DNA of 64,000 nucleotides from an uncultured Enterobacteriaceae bacterium (GCA_964576525.1 CAZNVH010000015.1:39883-103882), one strand, 5' to 3'; shown: positions 13,483 to 34,468, numbered from the stretch's first letter. The notes: a model not told the origin generated them from the sequence alone. Numbers and translations are program-made.

Positions 13483-14484
13483 ATGATCGGACGCCTGCTC
13501 GAGCGCAACCCGCGATTCGCCAACTGGATGTACGGCTTCGTGCCGCCGGAGCGCGGCACGGTGGTGCTGGTGCACCGCCGGGTGTACATCGTGCCGACGC
13601 GCCTGGGCTGGTTCTTCGGCGGCACGCTCACCATCCTGCTGATCGGCTCGATCAACTACGCGCTGTCGCTCGGCTTCGCGCTCACCTTCCTGCTCGCCGG
13701 CCTGGCGCTCGCCGGCATGGTGCATACCGCGCGCAACCTGGCGCGCATCGCGGTGAGCACCGGGCGCAGCGAGCCGGTGTTCGCCGGCGAGTCGGCGCAG
13801 TTCCGCCTGTTTCTCGACGGTCGCGCCGCGTTCGACCGGCCCTCGATCCTCGCGCGCCATCTCGGCTCGGGCGCGCAGCTGGTGGTCGACATCCCGGCGC
13901 GCGGCATCGCCGAGGTGGTGCTCGGGGTGCCGGCGCCGCGCCGCGGCTGGCTGCCCCTGGGCCGCGTGATGCTCGAGACGCGCTTTCCGCTGGGCCTGTT
14001 CCGCGCCTGGAGCTACCTCGAGCCCGAGGCGCGCTGCCTGGTCTATCCGCGCCCGGAGCGCTCGCCGCTGCCGCCCTACAGCGGCGCGGCGGCCGCCGGC
14101 GCGCTGCAGACGCAAACCCCCGGCAACGACGACTTCACCGGCCTGCGCGGCTACCAGCGCTCCGATTCGCCGCGCCACGTCGCCTGGAAGGCCGTGGCGC
14201 GCAGCGACACCCTATCCACGCGCAGCGACGACATGTTGACCAAGCAGTTCGCCGGCGACGCCGCAGCCGAGCTGTGGCTCGACGCGCGCCTGCTGCCGCC
14301 CGGCCTGGGCCTCGAGCAGCGGCTGTCGCGCCTCGCCGGCTGGGTGCTGGCCGCCGAGCGCGCCGGCGCGCAGTACGGCCTGCGCCTCGCCGGCGTCGAG
14401 ATCGCGCCCGGCCGCGGCGAGGCGCACCGCGCCTCCTGCCTGCAGGCGCTCGCGCTGCATCAAGCCATGAAGACGGACGCATGA
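13483..14484 (+). CDS. DUF58 domain protein
   Basis: 333 aa with two N-terminal TM helices and DDFTGLRGYQRSDSPRHVAWKAVAR, typical of DUF58 (vWA-like). Precedes a TgpA-type transglutaminase. Confidence 0.75.
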   Translation: MIGRLLERNPRFANWMYGFVPPERGTVVLVHRRVYIVPTRLGWFFGGTLTILLIGSINYALSLGFALTFLLAGLALAGMVHTARNLARIAVSTGRSEPVFAGESAQFRLFLDGRAAFDRPSILARHLGSGAQLVVDIPARGIAEVVLGVPAPRRGWLPLGRVMLETRFPLGLFRAWSYLEPEARCLVYPRPERSPLPPYSGAAAAGALQTQTPGNDDFTGLRGYQRSDSPRHVAWKAVARSDTLSTRSDDMLTKQFAGDAAAELWLDARLLPPGLGLEQRLSRLAGWVLAAERAGAQYGLRLAGVEIAPGRGEAHRASCLQALALHQAMKTDA

Positions 14485-29016: not shown

Positions 29017-29244
29017 TCAGGCCGCCAGGCCTCGCGCGTGCGCGATCTCGCCACCGCCTACCTCCCTCAGTTGCCCGGTAGACAAGGTAGTCACCGCGAC
29101 CGTCTCCCCGTCCAGCGCGATGAACTCGACCTCATAGCCCCCGCCGTCGCCATGGACGAGCACTACCGTACCGACATCGCCACGCTTCAGGCCATGTTCA
29201 GGCAGGTCACACTCCAGGACTACGGCATCCAGCTCGCGGATCAT
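29017..29244 (-). CDS. DUF4926-like small protein
   Basis: 75 aa from MIRELDAVVLECDLPEHGLKRGDVGTVVLVHGDGGGYEVEF. ATGA overlap with the upstream small gene. Confidence 0.55.
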   Translation of the reverse strand: MIRELDAVVLECDLPEHGLKRGDVGTVVLVHGDGGGYEVEFIALDGETVAVTTLSTGQLREVGGGEIAHARGLAA

Positions 29245-29588
29245 GGCGATTTCCTCTTCAGCGGATGCGCGGTAGCAAACCGCGGCACCGATGTCGTTTC
29301 GCTTATAAACCATACGCTGCGCACGTTCAAGATTCTACCGTCGGGCGCGGCCAGTGGGCCGTCAACTACATAACGCGTGCCGTACGGCGTGTTCCTGACT
29401 GAAGCGACGACATTCTCCGCGGCATGCCGGCGCAGCGCTTCAGCGAGCGCTCGCCAGTTTTTCACCGTAAACCCGTGCTTCCCGAAGAATTCGGCCTTGC
29501 TCCGCCCCGCCGGGTGGGTTGACGAGAGTAAATACCGGACGATCTTTGCCTCGGAGATCTCCGCCTTATCGGCATCGGGTAATCCCAT
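29241..29588 (-). CDS. DUF6883-like small protein
   Basis: 115 aa from MGLPDADKAEISEAKIVRYLLSSTHPAGRSKAEFFGKHGF. The pattern is recalled as DUF6883. It is paired with the DUF4926-like gene in a TA-like two-gene cassette. Confidence 0.5.
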   Translation of the reverse strand: MGLPDADKAEISEAKIVRYLLSSTHPAGRSKAEFFGKHGFTVKNWRALAEALRRHAAENVVASVRNTPYGTRYVVDGPLAAPDGRILNVRSVWFISETTSVPRFATAHPLKRKSP

Positions 29589-29684
29589 TTGATCTGCTTC
29601 TCGCTGGATCCAAGCAGGTAACGCGGCCTGGCCCGCTGCAGTTGACGCGCTCGACCGCGAGCGCCGACGCATCCCAGAACCGCA

Positions 29685-29975
29685 TTAGCGGCGTTCCCGG
29701 TCCTCGGCGATCAGGCGCGCGGCATCGGCCGCCTTGCGCAGCTTCGCCGGCCTCGGCAGGCGCCGCGGCGGCGCCTTGCGCCCGAGGCGGACGATGCCGC
29801 GTCTCTCGAGCTCGGCGAGGCGCGCGTCCTGCTGCGTCCGCGTCCCGGGTTCGAGCGGCGCGAGACGCGCCACCGGTCGTCCGCGATCGGTGATCAGAAT
29901 CGTCTCGCCACCCCGCACGCGATCGACGTAGGCCGAAAGACGGTTCTTCGCTTCCGAGATCGAGGCTCGCTTCAT
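29685..29975 (-). CDS. Phd/YefM-family type II antitoxin (no cognate toxin ORF seen)
   Basis: 96 aa from MKRASISEAKNRLSAYVDRVRGGETILITDRGRPVARLAPL, a classical Phd/YefM N-terminus. The listed start at 30092 adds Gly/Arg-rich junk. Confidence 0.75.
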   Translation of the reverse strand: MKRASISEAKNRLSAYVDRVRGGETILITDRGRPVARLAPLEPGTRTQQDARLAELERRGIVRLGRKAPPRRLPRPAKLRKAADAARLIAEDRERR

Positions 29976-29994
29976 CTGGCCACTATAGCCAGAT
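29974..29994. promoter_or_regulatory. 7-bp inverted repeat ATCTGGC-N7-GCCAGAT overlapping the antitoxin start codon (candidate operator)
   Basis: Read directly. On the coding strand it is ATCTGGC-TATAGTG-GCCAGAT-G, with a TATAGT -10-like hexamer in the spacer and the ATG formed by the right arm. Confidence 0.3.
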
Positions 29995-30145
29995 CGCCAG
30001 GCTGCGGGTAACGCGCCGGGCCCGCCTCCGCCGGTCGGCGGACCAAGGCGGGCACCGGTGCGGGCCGCGGGAACCGCGGCCGTTCTCATCATGGCGGGCC
30101 CTGGACGCCCGAGTGCTCACCCGGTGCGACCGTAATCGCGCCGGC

Positions 30146-31375
30146 TCAGGCGTTCGGGCGTGCTGGCGACGCGCAGGCCGTTGTTGTTGTTGCGGTTAGA
30201 AGTCGTGTTGTTGTTGCGGTTGGCGGAGCGCAGGTTCTGTGGATTGTTGTTCCACGAGCCGCCACGCTGGACGCGCTGCGCACAAAGGGCCAGCCAGGCT
30301 CGCGCGGCGCCTCGTTCGACGGATCGAACCAGCCGCCGCGAAAGATCGCGCGCCTCAGGCGCCAGGTGTCGGCATGTTCGGCATGCGCGATCCAGGCGCC
30401 GATGCGCCGCACAACTTCCTCTCCTGTCACCGTGCCCGCGCGCCAGCGGTCGCGCAGCCCGCGCAGCCGGTTGCGGAAGCGCCTCACATTGTCTTCCGGC
30501 AGCCGGCGGTAGCCGCGCGGCGCGAGCACGTAGCCGAGAAAACGCGCCGGCGCGGCGCTCTCGGCGATGTGCGTCTTTTCGGGGTGAAGCAGGAGCCGCC
30601 TGCCGCAGAGAAAGCGCGCAAGCTCGCCCCGCCACGCTTCGAGGGTATCCACGCCGTCCGCAAACAGGGCGAAGTCGTCGACGTAGCGCACATAGGGGGC
30701 GCGCAGCACTTCCGTGGCGAAGTGATCCAGGCAGTCGAGATACAGGTTGGCGAAGAACTGGCTGGTGAGGTTGCCGATCGGCAGGCCGCGCCTGCGCCCA
30801 AAGGGCGAGAACAAATCATCTCCGGGAAAATAACGCTCGACCGGCTCCTGGCGATTGGCGCCGTCGACGATGGCATCGAGCAGCGCGAGTGTGCGCGCGC
30901 AGGCGATGCGGCGCCGGAACTCCGCCTTCAATATTTCATGATCGACGGCCGGGAAATAGCGGTAGACGTCGCAGCGGAGCACGTGGCGGTGCCGGTCGCG
31001 GTAGCGCTCGTAGCAGGCGACCGCGCGGTGCGAGCCCTTGCCCGTGCGGTTGGCATACGTGTTGGCGATGAAACCGCGCTCGAAGAGCGGCTCGACCACC
31101 GCGCAGAGCGCGTGGTGCACGACGCGGTCGCGAAACGGCGCCGCGGAGATGTTGCGCGGCTTGGGATCGAGCACGCGGAAGGTGACGTAGCCGCCGGGCC
31201 GCCAGCTTCCCTCCAGCAGCCCGCGCTCGAGCTTGAGCAGCTCGCGCTCCAGGTTGGCCATGAACGCTGCGGCGCCGGGCTTCCTGCGCTTGCCCGTGAC
31301 GGCCCGCAGCGCCGCTTCGTGCAGCGCGCGAAAGTTCGCGATGCGCGCAAAGAGGTCTTCAGCCCTGCGCGGCAC
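30146..31375 (-). CDS. DGR reverse transcriptase (Brt-like)
   Basis: Motifs KPRNISAAPFRDRVVHHAL, YANRTGKGSHRAV, LPIGNLTSQFFANLYL, YVRYVDDFALF, FLGYVL and AHAEHADTWRL. The probable start is GTG 31375 (17-nt overlap with avd), with an alternative ATG at 31453. The last 60 or so codons read through the TR in another frame (TTT runs). Confidence 0.88.
   Translation of the reverse strand: MPRRAEDLFARIANFRALHEAALRAVTGKRRKPGAAAFMANLERELLKLERGLLEGSWRPGGYVTFRVLDPKPRNISAAPFRDRVVHHALCAVVEPLFERGFIANTYANRTGKGSHRAVACYERYRDRHRHVLRCDVYRYFPAVDHEILKAEFRRRIACARTLALLDAIVDGANRQEPVERYFPGDDLFSPFGRRRGLPIGNLTSQFFANLYLDCLDHFATEVLRAPYVRYVDDFALFADGVDTLEAWRGELARFLCGRRLLLHPEKTHIAESAAPARFLGYVLAPRGYRRLPEDNVRRFRNRLRGLRDRWRAGTVTGEEVVRRIGAWIAHAEHADTWRLRRAIFRGGWFDPSNEAPREPGWPFVRSASSVAARGTTIHRTCAPPTATTTRLLTATTTTACASPARPNA
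30163..30285 (-). repeat. DGR template repeat (TR), 123 nt, AAC-rich
   Basis: Coding-strand sequence is TTGTGCGCAGCGCGTCCAGCGTGGCGGCTCGTGGAACAACAATCCACAGAACCTGCGCTCCGCCAACCGCAACAACAACACGACTTCTAACCGCAACAACAACAACGGCCTGCGCGTCGCCAG. It aligns to 31794..31922 with differences only at TR adenines plus one 6-nt indel. Confidence 0.9.
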
Positions 31376-31721
31376 GGTTCGCCTTCTTCCAGCCGCCGAC
31401 CAGGCGCCCCGTCTCGTCGAGGTTGCGCGCCGCGTGCTCGTAGCGGCGCGCATCGAGGAGCCTCAGGTCGTGCGCGAGGCGAAACAGGATGCGCAGCTTG
31501 TCCAGGCCTAGGTTCGCCGCGTCGAGCGCCTGCTCGCGCCGGCGGTCGTAGGTGGCCTCGATCAGGCGCTCGAGCACGTCGAGCGCGCCCGCCTGGATGC
31601 GGTCGCCGAGCAGGAACTTCTGCGAGCGCGGGAACTTCTCCACCGTCGGGATGAGCCACAACAGAAACCGGTACAGCGCTTCAAGAGCCGGGCCGGTTTT
31701 GCGCGCTGAGCTGTCCGCCAT
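31359..31721 (-). CDS. avd: DGR accessory variability determinant (Avd, four-helix-bundle protein)
   Basis: 120 aa with LEALYRFLLWLIPTVEKFPRSQKFLLGDRIQAGALDVLERLIEA, typical of the four-helix-bundle/Avd family. It sits between the target and the RT. Confidence 0.8.
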   Translation of the reverse strand: MADSSARKTGPALEALYRFLLWLIPTVEKFPRSQKFLLGDRIQAGALDVLERLIEATYDRRREQALDAANLGLDKLRILFRLAHDLRLLDARRYEHAARNLDETGRLVGGWKKANRAAQG

Positions 31722-31729
31722 TCAAATTT

Positions 31730-31753
31730 CCGCCGCGCCTCACGGCGCGGCGG
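31730..31753. other. Perfect 10-bp GC stem / 4-nt loop hairpin between the VR-bearing gene and avd
   Basis: CCGCCGCGCC (31730-31739), loop TCAC, GGCGCGGCGG (31744-31753). The loop on the coding strand is GTGA. It lies 40 nt downstream of the VR 3' end. Confidence 0.7.
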
Positions 31754-31783
31754 CAAGAGTCAAGGAGTCAAAGATGCAAGAGG

Positions 31784-33640
31784 CTAGTTTGTCCTGGCGA
31801 CGCGCAGGCCGAAGTCGAAGCCGCGGTAAGAAGCCGAGTAGCTGAAGTAGCCGCGGACGGCGGAGCGCAGGGACCGCGGATTGATGAACCACGAGCCGCC
31901 ACGCTGGACGCGCCGCGCACAATTGCTGGAAGTCCACGCGCTGCCGTCGCCCGGCGCCCCGGCATAGTTCGAATTCCAGCAATCCTCGACCCATTCCCAG
32001 ACGTTGCCATGCACGTCGTACAGCCCGAAAGCGTTCGGCGAATATTTTCCAACCTCCACCGTCTTGCCTTCTTTCGTCCCGGTCGGGCTCCCCGCGTAAG
32101 AGACCGAGGCATCATAGTTTGCCTGCTGCGGCGAGATGCTGTTGCCCCAGGAGAATGCGGTCGTCGTGCCGGCGCGCGCGACGTATTCCCATTCCGCCTC
32201 GGTGAGCAGCCGGTAGCTCTTGCCCGTCTTGCGCGAGAGCCAGGCGACGTACTGCTTCGCGTCATCCCACGAAACGTGGATGACCGGCCGCCGGCCGCGG
32301 CCGGAGTCGCTCGGGTTATGGCTGCAGCCGTTTTCGCGCACGCAGGCGTCCCATTCGTCGAAGGTGACTTCGTATTTGCCCGCGGCGAAGGAACGGGAGA
32401 TTGTTACCTGGTGCTGCGGGCCTTCGTCGCCGCCTCGCCCAGGCTCGGACTGGGGCGATCCCATCATGAAGCTGCCGGGCGGGATCATGATCATCTCGGG
32501 GCAGACATCGCAGTCGCGGAAGCTCGTGCCGGGCCGGGCCGAAGGAGGCGAGACCACGCTCGGCGGCGCGACAACGACCACCTGCTGCGGCGGCGGCGCG
32601 GAAATCGTGGGCGCGACAACGGTCACCTGCGGTCGCGGGGCGGAAACCGCGGGCGCGGCGGCTGGGGCCGGCGCGGGGCTCAACGCCTTCAGGCGGGCGC
32701 GGGCGACGCCGGCAAAGCGGCCCTTCGGGTACTGCTCGAGATAGGCGTTGAGCTCATCGGCGTTGCGGCTGTTCCTGACGCTCTCCCACAGCGCGAGCTC
32801 GAGCGCCACGGGATCGGTGGCGGGGGTTGCTGCCGCGGGAGTTGGCGTGGTCTGGGGAGCAGCAGCGACCTGGGTCCCAGGCCGGAAGTAGAAGTCGCCA
32901 ACCAGAGAGGTCGATTCCCAGGGCGTCTGCTTGCCGCCGGTTTCCCTGACCACGCCGGCGCGGGTGCGCTGGAAGACCTTGAGGAGATCGGTATCAGACT
33001 GATTCAGGCTCGCGAGCAGATGCTTGGTGTACGTGCCGTTGCGTCCCGCACCGTCCGCCGCCACTGAGCCGGGCGCGGTGGCGAAGGCGATGACGCTGCC
33101 AGTAGCGGCGTTCATCTGCGCGAGCCCGCGCGACGCCGAACGGAAGCTGCGCGCGAAGGGATTGTTGCGGCAGGCATCGAGGACGATGATGCTGACCTTG
33201 ACCTGCGCCTCTTCCATGGTGCGCAGCGCGAGGTTCGCATTGATCGCCAGGTCCTCGGCCTCGGCTTCGCTCTGGATGTCGGCCCCGACAGGGACGAGGT
33301 AGTTCTCCCCTTTCACCTGCACGCCGTGGCCCGCGAAAAAGAAGAGGCCGACCTGAGCGCGTCGCAGCTCGGCGCCGAACTCGCGAATCGCTTGCCGCAT
33401 GTCGCGGCTGCCGGCATTGCGCTTGAGGATAACCTTGAAGCCGAACCGCTCGAGAGCCTTGGCGATGTCCGCCGCGTCATTCGCCGGGTTGGCGAGCGGC
33501 GAGTCCTTGTAGGCCGAGTTGCCGATCACGAGCGCCACGCGCTGCTCGCCCGCCTGGGCGGGAGCGACATTGAGGTTGCGCTGCGCGGCGGCGGTGGCCG
33601 GCACAGCGGAAATCAGGACCGCGAGAAGAATCCGCCACAT
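31784..33640 (-). CDS. DGR target protein: signal peptide + caspase-like peptidase C14 domain + Pro/Ala-rich linker + FGE-sulfatase (C-type-lectin fold) domain carrying the VR
   Basis: 618 aa from MWRILLAVLISAVPATAAAQ (ATG 33640 preceded by GGGAGGG; the listed start at 33658 is TTG). Caspase His/Cys dyad contexts are FFFAGHGVQ and IVLDACRNNPF. The FGE-sulfatase region is MIMIPPGSFMMGSP...VSWDDAKQYVAWLS...RLLTEAEWEYVARAG...GLYDVHGNVWEWVEDCW...RVQRGGSW. Confidence 0.85.
   Translation of the reverse strand: MWRILLAVLISAVPATAAAQRNLNVAPAQAGEQRVALVIGNSAYKDSPLANPANDAADIAKALERFGFKVILKRNAGSRDMRQAIREFGAELRRAQVGLFFFAGHGVQVKGENYLVPVGADIQSEAEAEDLAINANLALRTMEEAQVKVSIIVLDACRNNPFARSFRSASRGLAQMNAATGSVIAFATAPGSVAADGAGRNGTYTKHLLASLNQSDTDLLKVFQRTRAGVVRETGGKQTPWESTSLVGDFYFRPGTQVAAAPQTTPTPAAATPATDPVALELALWESVRNSRNADELNAYLEQYPKGRFAGVARARLKALSPAPAPAAAPAVSAPRPQVTVVAPTISAPPPQQVVVVAPPSVVSPPSARPGTSFRDCDVCPEMIMIPPGSFMMGSPQSEPGRGGDEGPQHQVTISRSFAAGKYEVTFDEWDACVRENGCSHNPSDSGRGRRPVIHVSWDDAKQYVAWLSRKTGKSYRLLTEAEWEYVARAGTTTAFSWGNSISPQQANYDASVSYAGSPTGTKEGKTVEVGKYSPNAFGLYDVHGNVWEWVEDCWNSNYAGAPGDGSAWTSSNCARRVQRGGSWFINPRSLRSAVRGYFSYSASYRGFDFGLRVARTN
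31794..31922 (-). repeat. DGR variable repeat (VR), 129 nt, at the 3' end of the target gene
   Basis: Coding strand is TTGTGCGCGGCGCGTCCAGCGTGGCGGCTCGTGGTTCATCAATCCGCGGTCCCTGCGCTCCGCCGTCCGCGGCTACTTCAGCTACTCGGCTTCTTACCGCGGCTTCGACTTCGGCCTGCGCGTCGCCAG. It ends 7 nt before the TAG stop. Confidence 0.9.
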
Positions 33641-33751: not shown

Positions 33752-34381
33752 CTAGAAGGAGAACTTGAGCCGCAGGTCCCAGGCGTCGACCCGGAGGTCG
33801 TCGAGGATCTGGAACCGGGTCCAGGCGATCCCAGCCGAGAGGCCTCCGGCCAGCATGTACGACGCGCCGACCCCGAAGTACGGCGAGACGCCTTCGTCCG
33901 ACGAGGCCGCGGGAACGGGCTTGTTGTCGAAGGTACCCGCGCCCGTCGCGGTCACGTCCGCGCTCCAGAAGTAGCCTCCCATGCGCGCATTGAGCCTGAA
34001 GCGCTCGATGTAGGTCTCGAAAACCGGCCCGAGAAACACGCCCGCACTCTCGATTCTCACGTTGAGCGGGCCGGGCGAATTGAACTTCAGCCGGCCGATC
34101 GCACCGGCTTGCGGCCCGGGGGCGCTGATCCCGGTCTCGCCGAGGTCGCGGTATCCGGCTTCGATGCCGACGAAACGGTTGAACATGTATCCGATGCCGA
34201 CCGACCAGGTCGCGTCGGCGCGATCCGACGAGAAACCCTGGTCCTCGAAGTCGTTGTAGTTCGTCAGCCCCTTGCCGAGGGCGACTTCGGCGAAGAACTG
34301 GGCCTGCGCCGCGAGCGCGCAAAGCCAGAGCGCGAGCCCAACGCAGAGCGAAAGCACAGGCTTCAATCGAACCTCCTTCAC
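33752..34381 (-). CDS. Outer-membrane beta-barrel protein (OmpA-like barrel / OMP_b-brl family)
   Basis: 209 aa with a signal peptide ending AAQAQ, alternating amphipathic strands and a C-terminal ...WDLRLKFSF (terminal Phe). GTG start. Confidence 0.65.
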   Translation of the reverse strand: MKEVRLKPVLSLCVGLALWLCALAAQAQFFAEVALGKGLTNYNDFEDQGFSSDRADATWSVGIGYMFNRFVGIEAGYRDLGETGISAPGPQAGAIGRLKFNSPGPLNVRIESAGVFLGPVFETYIERFRLNARMGGYFWSADVTATGAGTFDNKPVPAASSDEGVSPYFGVGASYMLAGGLSAGIAWTRFQILDDLRVDAWDLRLKFSF

Positions 34382-34391
34382 CGGAGAAATC

Positions 34392-34468
34392 TGGTAGGCG
34401 CGATTGGACTCGAACCAACGACCCCCACCATGTCAAGGTGGTGCTCTAACCAGCTGAGCTACGCGCCT
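34392..34468 (-). tRNA. tRNA-Val (anticodon GAC)
   Basis: Reverse complement is AGGCGCGTAGCTCAGCTGGTTAGAGCACCACCTTGACATGGTGGGGGTCGTTGGTTCGAGTCCAATCGCGCCTACCA, with anticodon loop TTGACAT and an encoded CCA. Confidence 0.92.

Follow-up and report, generated by a model that had tools for sequence, protein, structure and literature searches.

A complete diversity-generating retroelement of published architecture with a caspase-lectin fusion as its target

The region 30012..33640 (minus strand) of the window, the whole 64-kb stretch of DNA that was analysed, is very probably an intact chromosomal diversity-generating retroelement (DGR) of avd-RT-TR architecture. DGRs are bacterial cassettes in which an error-prone reverse transcriptase (RT) copies a template and rewrites the tip of one secreted protein, and those of this kind are already represented in thousands of genomes. 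The cassette is complete but ordinary: DGRs with this architecture, with a lectin-fold target, with a caspase fusion or with indels beside AAC have all been published. Every sequence-level hallmark testable here was present, confirming the observation made in the first-pass annotation and supporting its interpretation as a DGR. That annotation had placed a complete element at 30146-33640; all components were indeed found, but the unit continues past 30146 to ~30012 as a structured RNA. The minus-strand components are a 618-aa target gene, avd, an RT of the DGR clade and a 123-nt TR. The core order avd-RT-TR, on one strand and without other accessory genes, is that of architecture B2 (Wu et al. 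2018, PMC5758913). The coding features and repeats are as follows.

31784..33640 (minus): target gene, 618 aa, with ATG at 33640 preceded by a GGGAGGG ribosome-binding site
32888..33541 (minus): caspase (Peptidase_C14) domain with AGHG and DACRN catalytic dyad motifs, Pfam 6e-39
31793..32503 (minus): FGE-sulfatase/C-type-lectin-fold domain with VR at its C-terminus, Pfam 5e-56
31794..31922 (minus): VR by alignment to TR, 129 nt, target residues 573-616 of 618
31794..31810 (minus): IMH-like, 17-nt GC-rich VR 3' end GGCCTGCGCGTCGCCAG, same as the TR 3' end
31359..31721 (minus): avd, 120 aa, NCBIfam NF033474 DivGenRetAVD 1e-31, Pfam bAvd 4.8e-18
30146..31375 (minus): RT ORF, 409 aa, GTG start, overlapping the avd stop by 17 nt
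30163..30285 (minus): TR, 123 nt with 33 A, and 12 AAC and 1 AAT codons in the VR frame

The TR/VR repeat pair

Recounting the 123-nt repeat at 30163..30285 gave the same 33 A, 12 AAC and 1 AAT as before. In the machine alignment of TR to VR, 24 substitutions and one in-frame 6-nt gap were observed. Each of the 24 substitutions lies opposite an adenine of TR (A>T 14 times, A>G 9 times and A>C once), and none of the 90 non-A positions differs (hypergeometric P = 1.8e-18). An earlier hand alignment had counted 25 substitutions, all at adenines; the restriction to adenines stood, but the best count is 24 plus the gap. Some placements with equal gaps give 25, still all at TR adenines. The TR adenines at codon positions 1, 2 and 3 number 16, 16 and 1, respectively, the substituted ones occupy positions 1 and 2, and mutagenesis of A in TR cannot create a stop codon.

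The repeat had also been described as matching the last 129 nt of the target gene. The alignment to 31794..31922 was upheld, but not its literal terminal position, as VR stops 7 nt short of the end of the stop codon. The identity of the 3' 17 nt, GGCCTGCGCGTCGCCAG, in TR and VR was borne out. Beyond this segment the homology ends sharply, VR continuing with GACAAAC and TR with CACGCCC; in relatives it extends ~7 nt further, with one G/C difference. In DGRs generally, retrohoming takes its direction from an IMH at the VR 3' end and a differing IMH* at that of TR. Neither a third exact copy of GGCCTGCGCGTCGCCAG nor a second VR was found in the 64-kb window, the nearest other match to the 17-mer being at 14377..14393 (plus strand) with 2 mismatches. 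At least one retrohoming event has occurred in the past.

VR exceeds TR by 6 nt, in frame and within the AAC run, and is therefore not a simple copy of the present TR. Its codons at the indel site, GGC TAC TTC AGC TAC, are all NNC (five of five), which is the expectation from five AAC templates. Wu et al. 2018 (PMC5758913) surveyed DGRs and saw in-frame indels beside an AAC run in 7% of them; 74% of DGR indels adjoined AAC, which those authors attributed to template slippage. In L067, the closest relative, the VR linked to the DGR is as long as TR, a further point in favour of slippage. Against it, two stand-alone homologues, P0008 (L076) and P0010 (L078), share the +2-codon length of VR, so the difference could predate the present TR or reflect a deletion in TR, and the window TR has AAC where the family consensus TR has AGG within the same run, indicating that the run was altered in this lineage. 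An origin other than RT slippage on the AAC run, either by later deletion in TR or by partial overwriting of an ancestral longer VR, carries a minority but appreciable share of the probability.

RNA structure, target site and activity

Downstream of TR, ~150 nt reaching to ~30012 form a structured RNA that is kept with compensatory changes in 29 related loci. Its elements, and those lying between VR and avd, are listed below.

31754..31783 (minus): pyrimidine-rich spacer CCTCTTGCATCTTTGACTCCTTGACTCTTG from the stop codon to the hairpin, with ~8-nt periodic YCTTKAC units
31730..31753 (minus): target-site hairpin/cruciform, stem CCGCCGCGCC / GGCGCGGCGG, 10-bp all-GC with 4-nt loop GTGA
30287..30296 (minus): long-range duplex 5' strand UGGCUGGCCC, ending 1 nt before TR and pairing with 30092..30101
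30085..30104 (minus): nearly invariant motifs GUCCAGGG and CAUGAUGAG, containing the duplex 3' strand GGGCCCGCCA (30092..30101)
30105..30161 (minus): RNA helix P1 enclosing P2, ACGCCC (30156..30161) with GGGCGU (30105..30110)
30135..30144 with 30121..30130 (minus): hairpin P2, 10-bp stem, UACG tetraloop at 30131..30134
30063..30081 (minus): hairpin P3, variable in relatives
30012..30062 (minus): hairpin P4, conserved with covariation

Compensatory changes were found at 7/10 pairs of the TR-clamping long-range duplex (10 bp, 29 sequences), and both sides were changed at 9/10 pairs of P2. Across the RNA alignment 92.6% of cells were paired, compared with 76% in shuffles and 33-47% when the partners were slid. 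Double changes occurred at 18/27 pairs, the observed values were reached by 0/500 shuffles, and RNAalifold scored 26/34 pairs as compensatory. The BPP-1 RNA described by Handa et al. has a duplex joining the 5' and 3' sides of TR (cPRT Stop) and an Avd-binding tetraloop stem-loop, and RNA elements like those of BPP-1 have been predicted in 207/278 Avd-type DGRs. Both a clamping duplex and a tetraloop stem-loop 3' of TR are present here, and P2 resembles the Avd-binding stem-loop by analogy.

On the target side, Guo et al. 2011 described a hairpin after VR with a 7-10 bp stem and a 4-nt GRNA loop, located 4-34 bp away. The 10-bp GC stem and the loop size of the present hairpin agree with that description, but the loop GTGA is outside GRNA, and the distance of ~40 nt from VR is just beyond the range. 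The intervening spacer (31754..31783) occurs once in the window and is kept across the RT family in the family alignment, and across phyla, at RT identities of only 60-73%. Two further proposals, that this spacer is an undescribed target-site determinant of the DGR lineage and that the DGR retargets an extracytoplasmic caspase-like protease, are regarded as rather improbable. If true, such retargeting would let hypermutation rewrite which substrate or ligand a secreted protease recognises.

Sixty-four related RT loci were collected, mostly from metagenome-assembled genomes and with 60-73% identity within the RT family. Some 40 of them have their own adenine-biased TR/VR pair in the same layout, with a TR-VR spacing of ~1.65 kb. 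Since all parts are intact and there are zero non-A TR/VR differences, the earlier view that the cassette may be functional or recently active is plausible, as judged from assembly consensus sequences. A DGR that is dormant or a fossil, one that diversified its target once, no longer retrohomes (the cassette being unexpressed, for example, or a host factor missing) and left the present VR as a fixed allele under selection, appears unlikely. It would accord with the same VR being seen in three independent assemblies, as contigs from SRR9952630 and SRR9952632 have identical Avd and VR and the assembly passes straight through VR. These assemblies, however, probably derive from one population, and minority variants are hidden by consensus. 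Dormancy would also suit the failure to detect a sigma-70-like promoter or other promoter-like site, as well as the additional 6 nt of VR, which, being present in two stand-alone homologues, fit a TR deletion after the last homing. Standing against it are the intact ORFs, catalytic motifs and RNA helices, and the 0/90 non-A differences in a locus whose non-coding flank differs from L067 at several positions, which points to a last event that was recent compared with the divergence of the lineages.

RT, Avd and the target protein

The ORF 30146..31453 (minus) contains LPIGNLTSQFFANLYL and YVRYVDDF, the motifs previously noted as Brt-like, and both IGNLTSQ (motif 4, of IGxxxSQ type) and YVDD are intact. 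Motifs and PDB matches assign the RT to the DGR clade; the best PDB match was the Bordetella phage bRT (8ub7, 5.6e-40), whereas the best group II intron RT reached 3.3e-17. The RT is homologous to bRT up to about residue 340-353; residues 364-409 are read-through of TR, which is contained within the RT ORF at its 3' end. Not all relatives have such read-through. Avd is the accessory protein of most DGRs, and the 120-aa ORF upstream of the RT, earlier called Avd-like, scored 109 bits against the DivGenRetAVD equivalog (cutoff 80) and also matched Pfam bAvd. An ordinary duplication or gene conversion beside a group II intron, retron or defence-type RT is scarcely credible and effectively refuted: although generic models match the RT (group_II_RT_mat at 1.7e-29, under its cutoff, and PADLOC RT/DRT models), the mismatches fall at adenines only (P as above), the cassette encodes an Avd equivalog, bRT leads the structural relatives by 23 orders of magnitude, the TR/VR signature is repeated in the ~40 like loci, and neither an intron RNA nor a retron family was found by Rfam.

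The target consists of a Sec-type signal peptide, a Peptidase_C14 caspase domain, a Pro/Ala-rich linker and an FGE-sulfatase domain of C-type-lectin fold. The HMM search for the last of these, suggested in the first-pass annotation, returned the Pfam match at 5e-56 with VR at the C-terminus of the domain, the usual place for a VR in a C-type-lectin-fold target. The caspase domain also matched the PADLOC caspase model (6e-13), and its His105/Cys157 dyad is invariant in aligned homologues. Relatives in PDB were PvdO (2e-57), TvpA (2e-14) and the MALT1 paracaspase (1e-14). An NCBI record exists for the exact 618-aa protein. Peptidase_C14 and FGE-sulfatase were both present in >100 of the best 120 target homologues, and the family of such secreted fusions is annotated SUMF1/EgtB/PvdO. 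The signal peptide was judged by eye, and hydrophobic N-termini were seen in 8/8 aligned homologues. Because of the signal peptide and the absence of NTPase, adaptor and TIR domains, the protein is predicted to lie outside the cytoplasm and not to be a cytosolic sensor-effector.

The caspase-lectin fusion family is large and widespread. Most of its members stand alone; some of these have retained an IMH-like 3' end and may serve as remote targets.

Proposed mechanism and comparison with known systems

By analogy with the BPP-1 DGR, a cycle would begin with transcription of the avd-RT-TR region. The RNA around TR would fold so that the 10-bp duplex links the sequence just 5' of TR to that ~60 nt 3', with helix P1 and tetraloop hairpin P2 between the duplex strands, and this scaffold would be bound by RT and Avd, the latter presumably through P2. 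Synthesis of cDNA may be self-primed near the TR 3' end and halt at the clamping duplex, with misincorporation by the RT opposite the 33 template adenines. The cDNA would then take the place of VR at the target gene's 3' end, with the 17-nt GC-rich segment common to both repeats, the downstream spacer and the hairpin as guides. Some 20 residues on the ligand-binding face of the lectin-fold domain, at the C-terminus of a secreted caspase-like protein, would thereby come in up to ~10^18 variants; the biological role of this protein is likewise a matter of analogy.

As one well-resolved example added to a very large known class, the finding changes little. Together with its 29 aligned relatives, the cassette allows clean comparisons within the avd-RT-TR architecture and defines an RNA family absent from Rfam. 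The compensatory changes support the TR-clamping duplex and the tetraloop stem-loop as general DGR RNA features, independently of the BPP-1 cryo-EM work. The target also suggests that, beyond the cyanobacteria, secreted fusions of caspase and lectin domains are diversified by DGRs.

The cassette shares with the BPP-1 DGR (mtd-avd-TR-brt) an Avd and an RT of the DGR clade (33% identical to Brt across 340 residues), adenine-specific TR-to-VR differences, a VR at the target gene 3' end with a shared GC-rich 3' end, a hairpin of GC stem and 4-nt loop past VR, an RNA duplex joining the 5' and 3' flanks of TR, and a tetraloop stem-loop 3' of TR. It differs in its order, avd-RT-TR with TR within the RT ORF tail; in its chromosomal rather than phage setting; in its target, an FGE-sulfatase-type lectin fold fused to a caspase rather than the Mtd tail fibre; and in the sharp end of TR/VR homology past the 17-nt GC segment. 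Its hairpin has the loop GTGA instead of GAAA and lies ~40 nt from VR, whereas that of BPP-1 starts directly after the stop codon.

B2 DGRs with FGE-sulfatase/CLec targets have the same order and target class (Wu et al. 2018, PMC5758913), and the in-frame indel at an AAC run also has its counterpart in that survey; neither a TR within the RT ORF nor the word 'peptidase' occurs in the searched text of that survey. Treponema denticola TvpA (PDB 2Y3C) likewise has an FGE-sulfatase-type C-type-lectin fold with C-terminal variable residues (phmmer 2.3e-14 over target residues 479-621) but is without a caspase domain, and the Treponema DGR has an HRDC accessory gene and architecture C (Wu et al. 2018, PMC5758913). 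Precedents for the target include DGR variable proteins of cyanobacteria that carry an orthocaspase domain at the N-terminus (Vallota-Eastman et al. 2020, PMC7517822) and conflict-system DGR targets (Dore et al. 2024, PMC10907252), in which a caspase-type peptidase is likewise joined to, or found with, a C-terminal CLec domain that a DGR diversifies. Unlike those, the present target has a Sec-type signal peptide and is without NTPase, adaptor or TIR domains, and its host has a high-GC proteobacterium-like genome, in contrast to the cyanobacterial hosts of the orthocaspase DGRs.

The repeat pair and the genes around it

In a gapped machine alignment of the template repeat (TR, 30163..30285) with the variable repeat (VR, 31794..31922) in the 3' end of the target gene, 24 substitutions were found (14 A>T, 9 A>G, and 1 A>C). 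These changed 24/33 of the TR adenines and 0/90 of the other positions, and the chance that 24 random substitutions would all fall at adenines is 1.8e-18. The first-pass annotation had counted 25 substitutions; the best placements give 24, the number depending on where the gap is placed, while its observation that every substitution lies at a TR adenine and none at C, G, or T was borne out. The 3' 17 nt were likewise found to be identical in both copies. This 17-mer has no further exact copy in the window, where its sole other match carries 2 mismatches, and a search of the window for a second VR found none. The TR contains 12 AAC codons and 1 AAT codon, with 16, 16, and 1 adenines at codon positions 1, 2, and 3, respectively, and mutagenesis at its adenines can reach ~10^18 peptides without any reachable stop codon.

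The protein-coding parts of the cassette were located as follows.

ATG at 33640 to 31784, minus strand: target ORF of 618 aa, with the best start preceded by the ribosome-binding site GGGAGGG
31359..31721, minus strand: avd, NCBIfam DivGenRetAVD (1e-31, 109 bits versus a cutoff of 80)
30146..31375, minus strand: reverse transcriptase (RT) ORF, GTG start, 17-nt overlap with the avd stop, motifs IGNLTSQ and YVDD

The RT motif series and the Avd-like ORF upstream of the RT, both previously read from the sequence, were thus recovered. Avd was identified with HMM libraries in place of a PDB sequence search, as phmmer gave no match to PDB sequences. The closest solved relative of the RT was the Bordetella phage BPP-1 enzyme bRT (8ub7, 5.6e-40), with the best group II intron RT at 3.3e-17.

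The 3' end of the RT ORF contains the TR, and the frame stays open through the entire repeat to a stop at 30146, 14 nt beyond it, so that 46 codons are TR-encoded (30146..30285, minus strand). Such read-through was observed in about 21/31 related loci. A functional TR-encoded tail (residues 364 to 409) was considered and rejected, because homology to bRT ends near residue 340 to 353, before the TR begins at residue 364, and because the RTs of three relatives (L001, L020, and L039) stop 4 to 15 nt ahead of the TR. The tail is therefore taken to be incidental read-through in a high-GC genome.

Pfam searches of the target, a predicted secreted caspase-lectin protein, identified Peptidase_C14 (6e-39) and, as anticipated in the first-pass annotation, FGE-sulfatase (5e-56). 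Its solved relatives were PvdO (2e-57), formylglycine-generating enzymes, the DGR target TvpA (2e-14), and the MALT1 paracaspase (1e-14); judging from the sequence matches to PvdO and TvpA, the fold is already placed. An identical 618-aa protein is present in NCBI, from a 165-kb contig. The caspase plus FGE-sulfatase fusion belongs to a very large family (7577 matches at E<=1e-10), both domains being present in >100 of the best 120 of these homologues, and the His/Cys dyad and a signal-peptide-like N-terminus are conserved. Earlier work on cyanobacteria and on proposed conflict systems has already described DGR variable proteins with caspase-type domains.

Related loci, chromosomal setting, and activity

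A scan of species-representative genomes returned 64 loci with RTs up to 73% identical, mostly from metagenome-assembled Alphaproteobacteria, Burkholderiales, Acidobacteriota, Binatia, and others. About 40 of the 64 carry their own adenine-biased repeat pair in the same layout. A C-terminal FGE-sulfatase domain is shared by their targets and the N-termini are varied, with a caspase domain found again in L033, L039, and, weakly, L017. At four loci (L002, L044, L018, and L028), a single TR is accompanied by two VR-bearing target genes. Of the closest target homologues, the first four with contig sequence beyond the 3' end of the gene have no adjoining avd or RT. Two stand-alone homologues, L071 (5745..5900) and L076 (1838..1999), retain an IMH-like GGCCTGCGCGTCGCCAGG end (the GC-rich 3' end shared by VR and TR) and a VR-like C-terminus, and could be former, orphan, or remote DGR targets. 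A further close homologue of this kind is L078 (1992..2144).

The cassette has a chromosomal location, with housekeeping genes around it. One flank carries an OmpA-like beta-barrel gene and tRNA-Val and then a SixA-like phosphatase, ppx, and ppk. The OmpA-like gene (33752..34468, minus strand) encodes an 8-stranded barrel and sits immediately between tRNA-Val(GAC) and the DGR target gene; it has the orientation of the target and could be co-expressed with it. The other flank carries a Phd antitoxin, a DUF6883/DUF4926 pair, TctC, and thrS, beginning with these genes.

29566..29975, minus strand: Phd/YefM antitoxin gene, start about 29975, without a recognisable toxin
overlapping the Phd stop (TAATG): 39-aa ORF, no Pfam match
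29241..29672: DUF6883 gene, after the Phd/YefM gene
29017..29313: DUF4926 gene, after the DUF6883 gene

The 39-aa ORF was considered as a truncated VapC following the Phd gene; this was rejected, as it has no Pfam match. A prophage or island origin was also rejected: none of these neighbours is phage-like, the GC content equals the background, and phage RTs are at most 39% identical to the RT.

The element had been proposed to be functional or recently active. Evidence for competence is that all proteins and RNA helices are intact and that the VR shows no non-A difference from the TR, whereas the nearest relative, L067, has already diverged at several sites of the neighbouring non-coding flank. 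Evidence against high current activity comes from the difference in length between VR and TR and from the recurrence of the VR: two Logan contigs (SRR9952630 and SRR9952632), both with an identical Avd and both assembled through the VR, carry it unchanged, so that no natural VR variation was seen among the contigs from the Avd look-up; an exact RT look-up returned no contig. L067 has a different VR in a nearly identical flank, and its contig has no TR of its own, so its VR differences cannot be assigned.

The VR is 6 nt longer than the TR within the AAC run, with five NNC codons (GGC TAC TTC AGC TAC) opposite three AAC. Wu et al. reported such indels in 7% of DGRs, mostly adjoining AAC, and ascribed them to template slippage. 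Slippage is not the only option here, because L076 and L078 share the longer (+2-codon) length of the VR; the difference may also stem from a later loss of 6 nt in the TR or go back to an older length.

The target site

Two elements follow the stop codon of the target gene.

31754..31783, minus strand: pyrimidine-rich spacer from the stop codon to the hairpin, in ~8-nt units CCTCTTGCATCTTTGACTCCTTGACTCTTG (YCTTKAC x3-4)
31730..31753, minus strand: hairpin with a 10-bp all-GC stem and a GTGA loop, ~40 nt past the end of TR/VR homology

The spacer is unique in the window, is kept in most relatives as ..CTTGAATCTTTACCTCTTTACCTCTT.., and is conserved across phyla; it may be a VR-specific part of the IMH. 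Guo et al. 2011 described target-site hairpins with 7- to 10-bp GC stems, 4-nt GRNA loops, and distances of 4 to 34 bp. The hairpin in the window is a near fit, matching in stem and loop size but falling slightly outside the range in loop sequence and distance. Because a T-run follows the hairpin in many relatives, it may double there as the terminator of the target gene. In the window, a promoter scan gave no promoter-like site, and terminator-like matches were at chance level.

In many relatives (L009, L013, L014, L038, L049, L050, and others), the 5' arm of the hairpin, ~32 to 43 nt past the VR, is GGGGTCCAGGGGC, a sequence similar to GUCCAGGG, the invariant and single-stranded motif in the DGR RNA; the window hairpin (CCGCCGCGCC) lacks it. 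The resemblance may be due to chance or may reflect a DNA/RNA mimicry element.

The RNA around the TR

A structured RNA, conserved across the family, was found to start just 5' of the TR and to extend ~150 nt beyond its 3' end. It is composed of the following elements.

30287..30296 (UGGCUGGCCC) with 30092..30101 (GGGCCCGCCA), minus strand: long-range duplex, its 5' strand ending 1 nt before the TR
30156..30161 with 30105..30110, minus strand: helix P1, directly after the TR and between the duplex strands, enclosing P2
30121..30144, minus strand: hairpin P2, 10-bp stem, UACG loop
30101..30108 (GUCCAGGG) and CAUGAUGAG, minus strand: nearly invariant motifs
after the motifs to about 30012, minus strand: hairpins P3 and P4

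The element had been annotated as ending at 30146; its target gene with VR, avd, RT, and TR are all present, but the structured RNA continues to about 30012. In an alignment of 29 sequences, 92.6% of cells were paired, versus 76% in column shuffles and 33 to 47% with slid partners. Both sides had changed in 18/27 pairs, and 0/500 shuffles reached the observed values. Compensatory changes were found in 7/10 pairs of the long-range duplex and 9/10 pairs of P2. A ribosome translating the RT to its end would need to open the long-range duplex, which clamps the TR, at its 5' strand, and translation could thereby be coupled to template use.

The TR and its RNA have also moved as a unit, because in L018 (5253..5440) and L029 (4656..4870), which carry the same RT family, the TR and downstream RNA lie upstream of avd (TR-avd-RT). 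At L018, target genes are present on both sides.

Rfam searches at gathering thresholds over the whole window gave three tRNAs only, and E-value mode over 29950..30350 gave chance-level matches only; no catalogued family therefore covers the DGR RNA. For BPP-1, Handa et al. (bioRxiv 10.1101/2023.10.23.563531) described an RNA that envelops bRT-Avd. Its elements are a template-primer duplex (TR:Sp), a "cPRT Stop" duplex in which sequences on the two sides of the TR pair, and, just downstream of the TR, a tetraloop-capped stem-loop of ~9 bp that binds Avd. The authors predicted such elements in 207/278 Avd-type DGRs; among Pseudomonadota, UNCG loops were common. The structure in the window fits that description and is therefore expected rather than new, though outside Rfam. 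By analogy, P1 is a candidate for the template-primer duplex and the long-range duplex for the stop element, and priming may occur at the invariant A of GUCCAGGG. The element itself is a real, complete, textbook DGR, with the known avd-RT-TR architecture and a known class of target.
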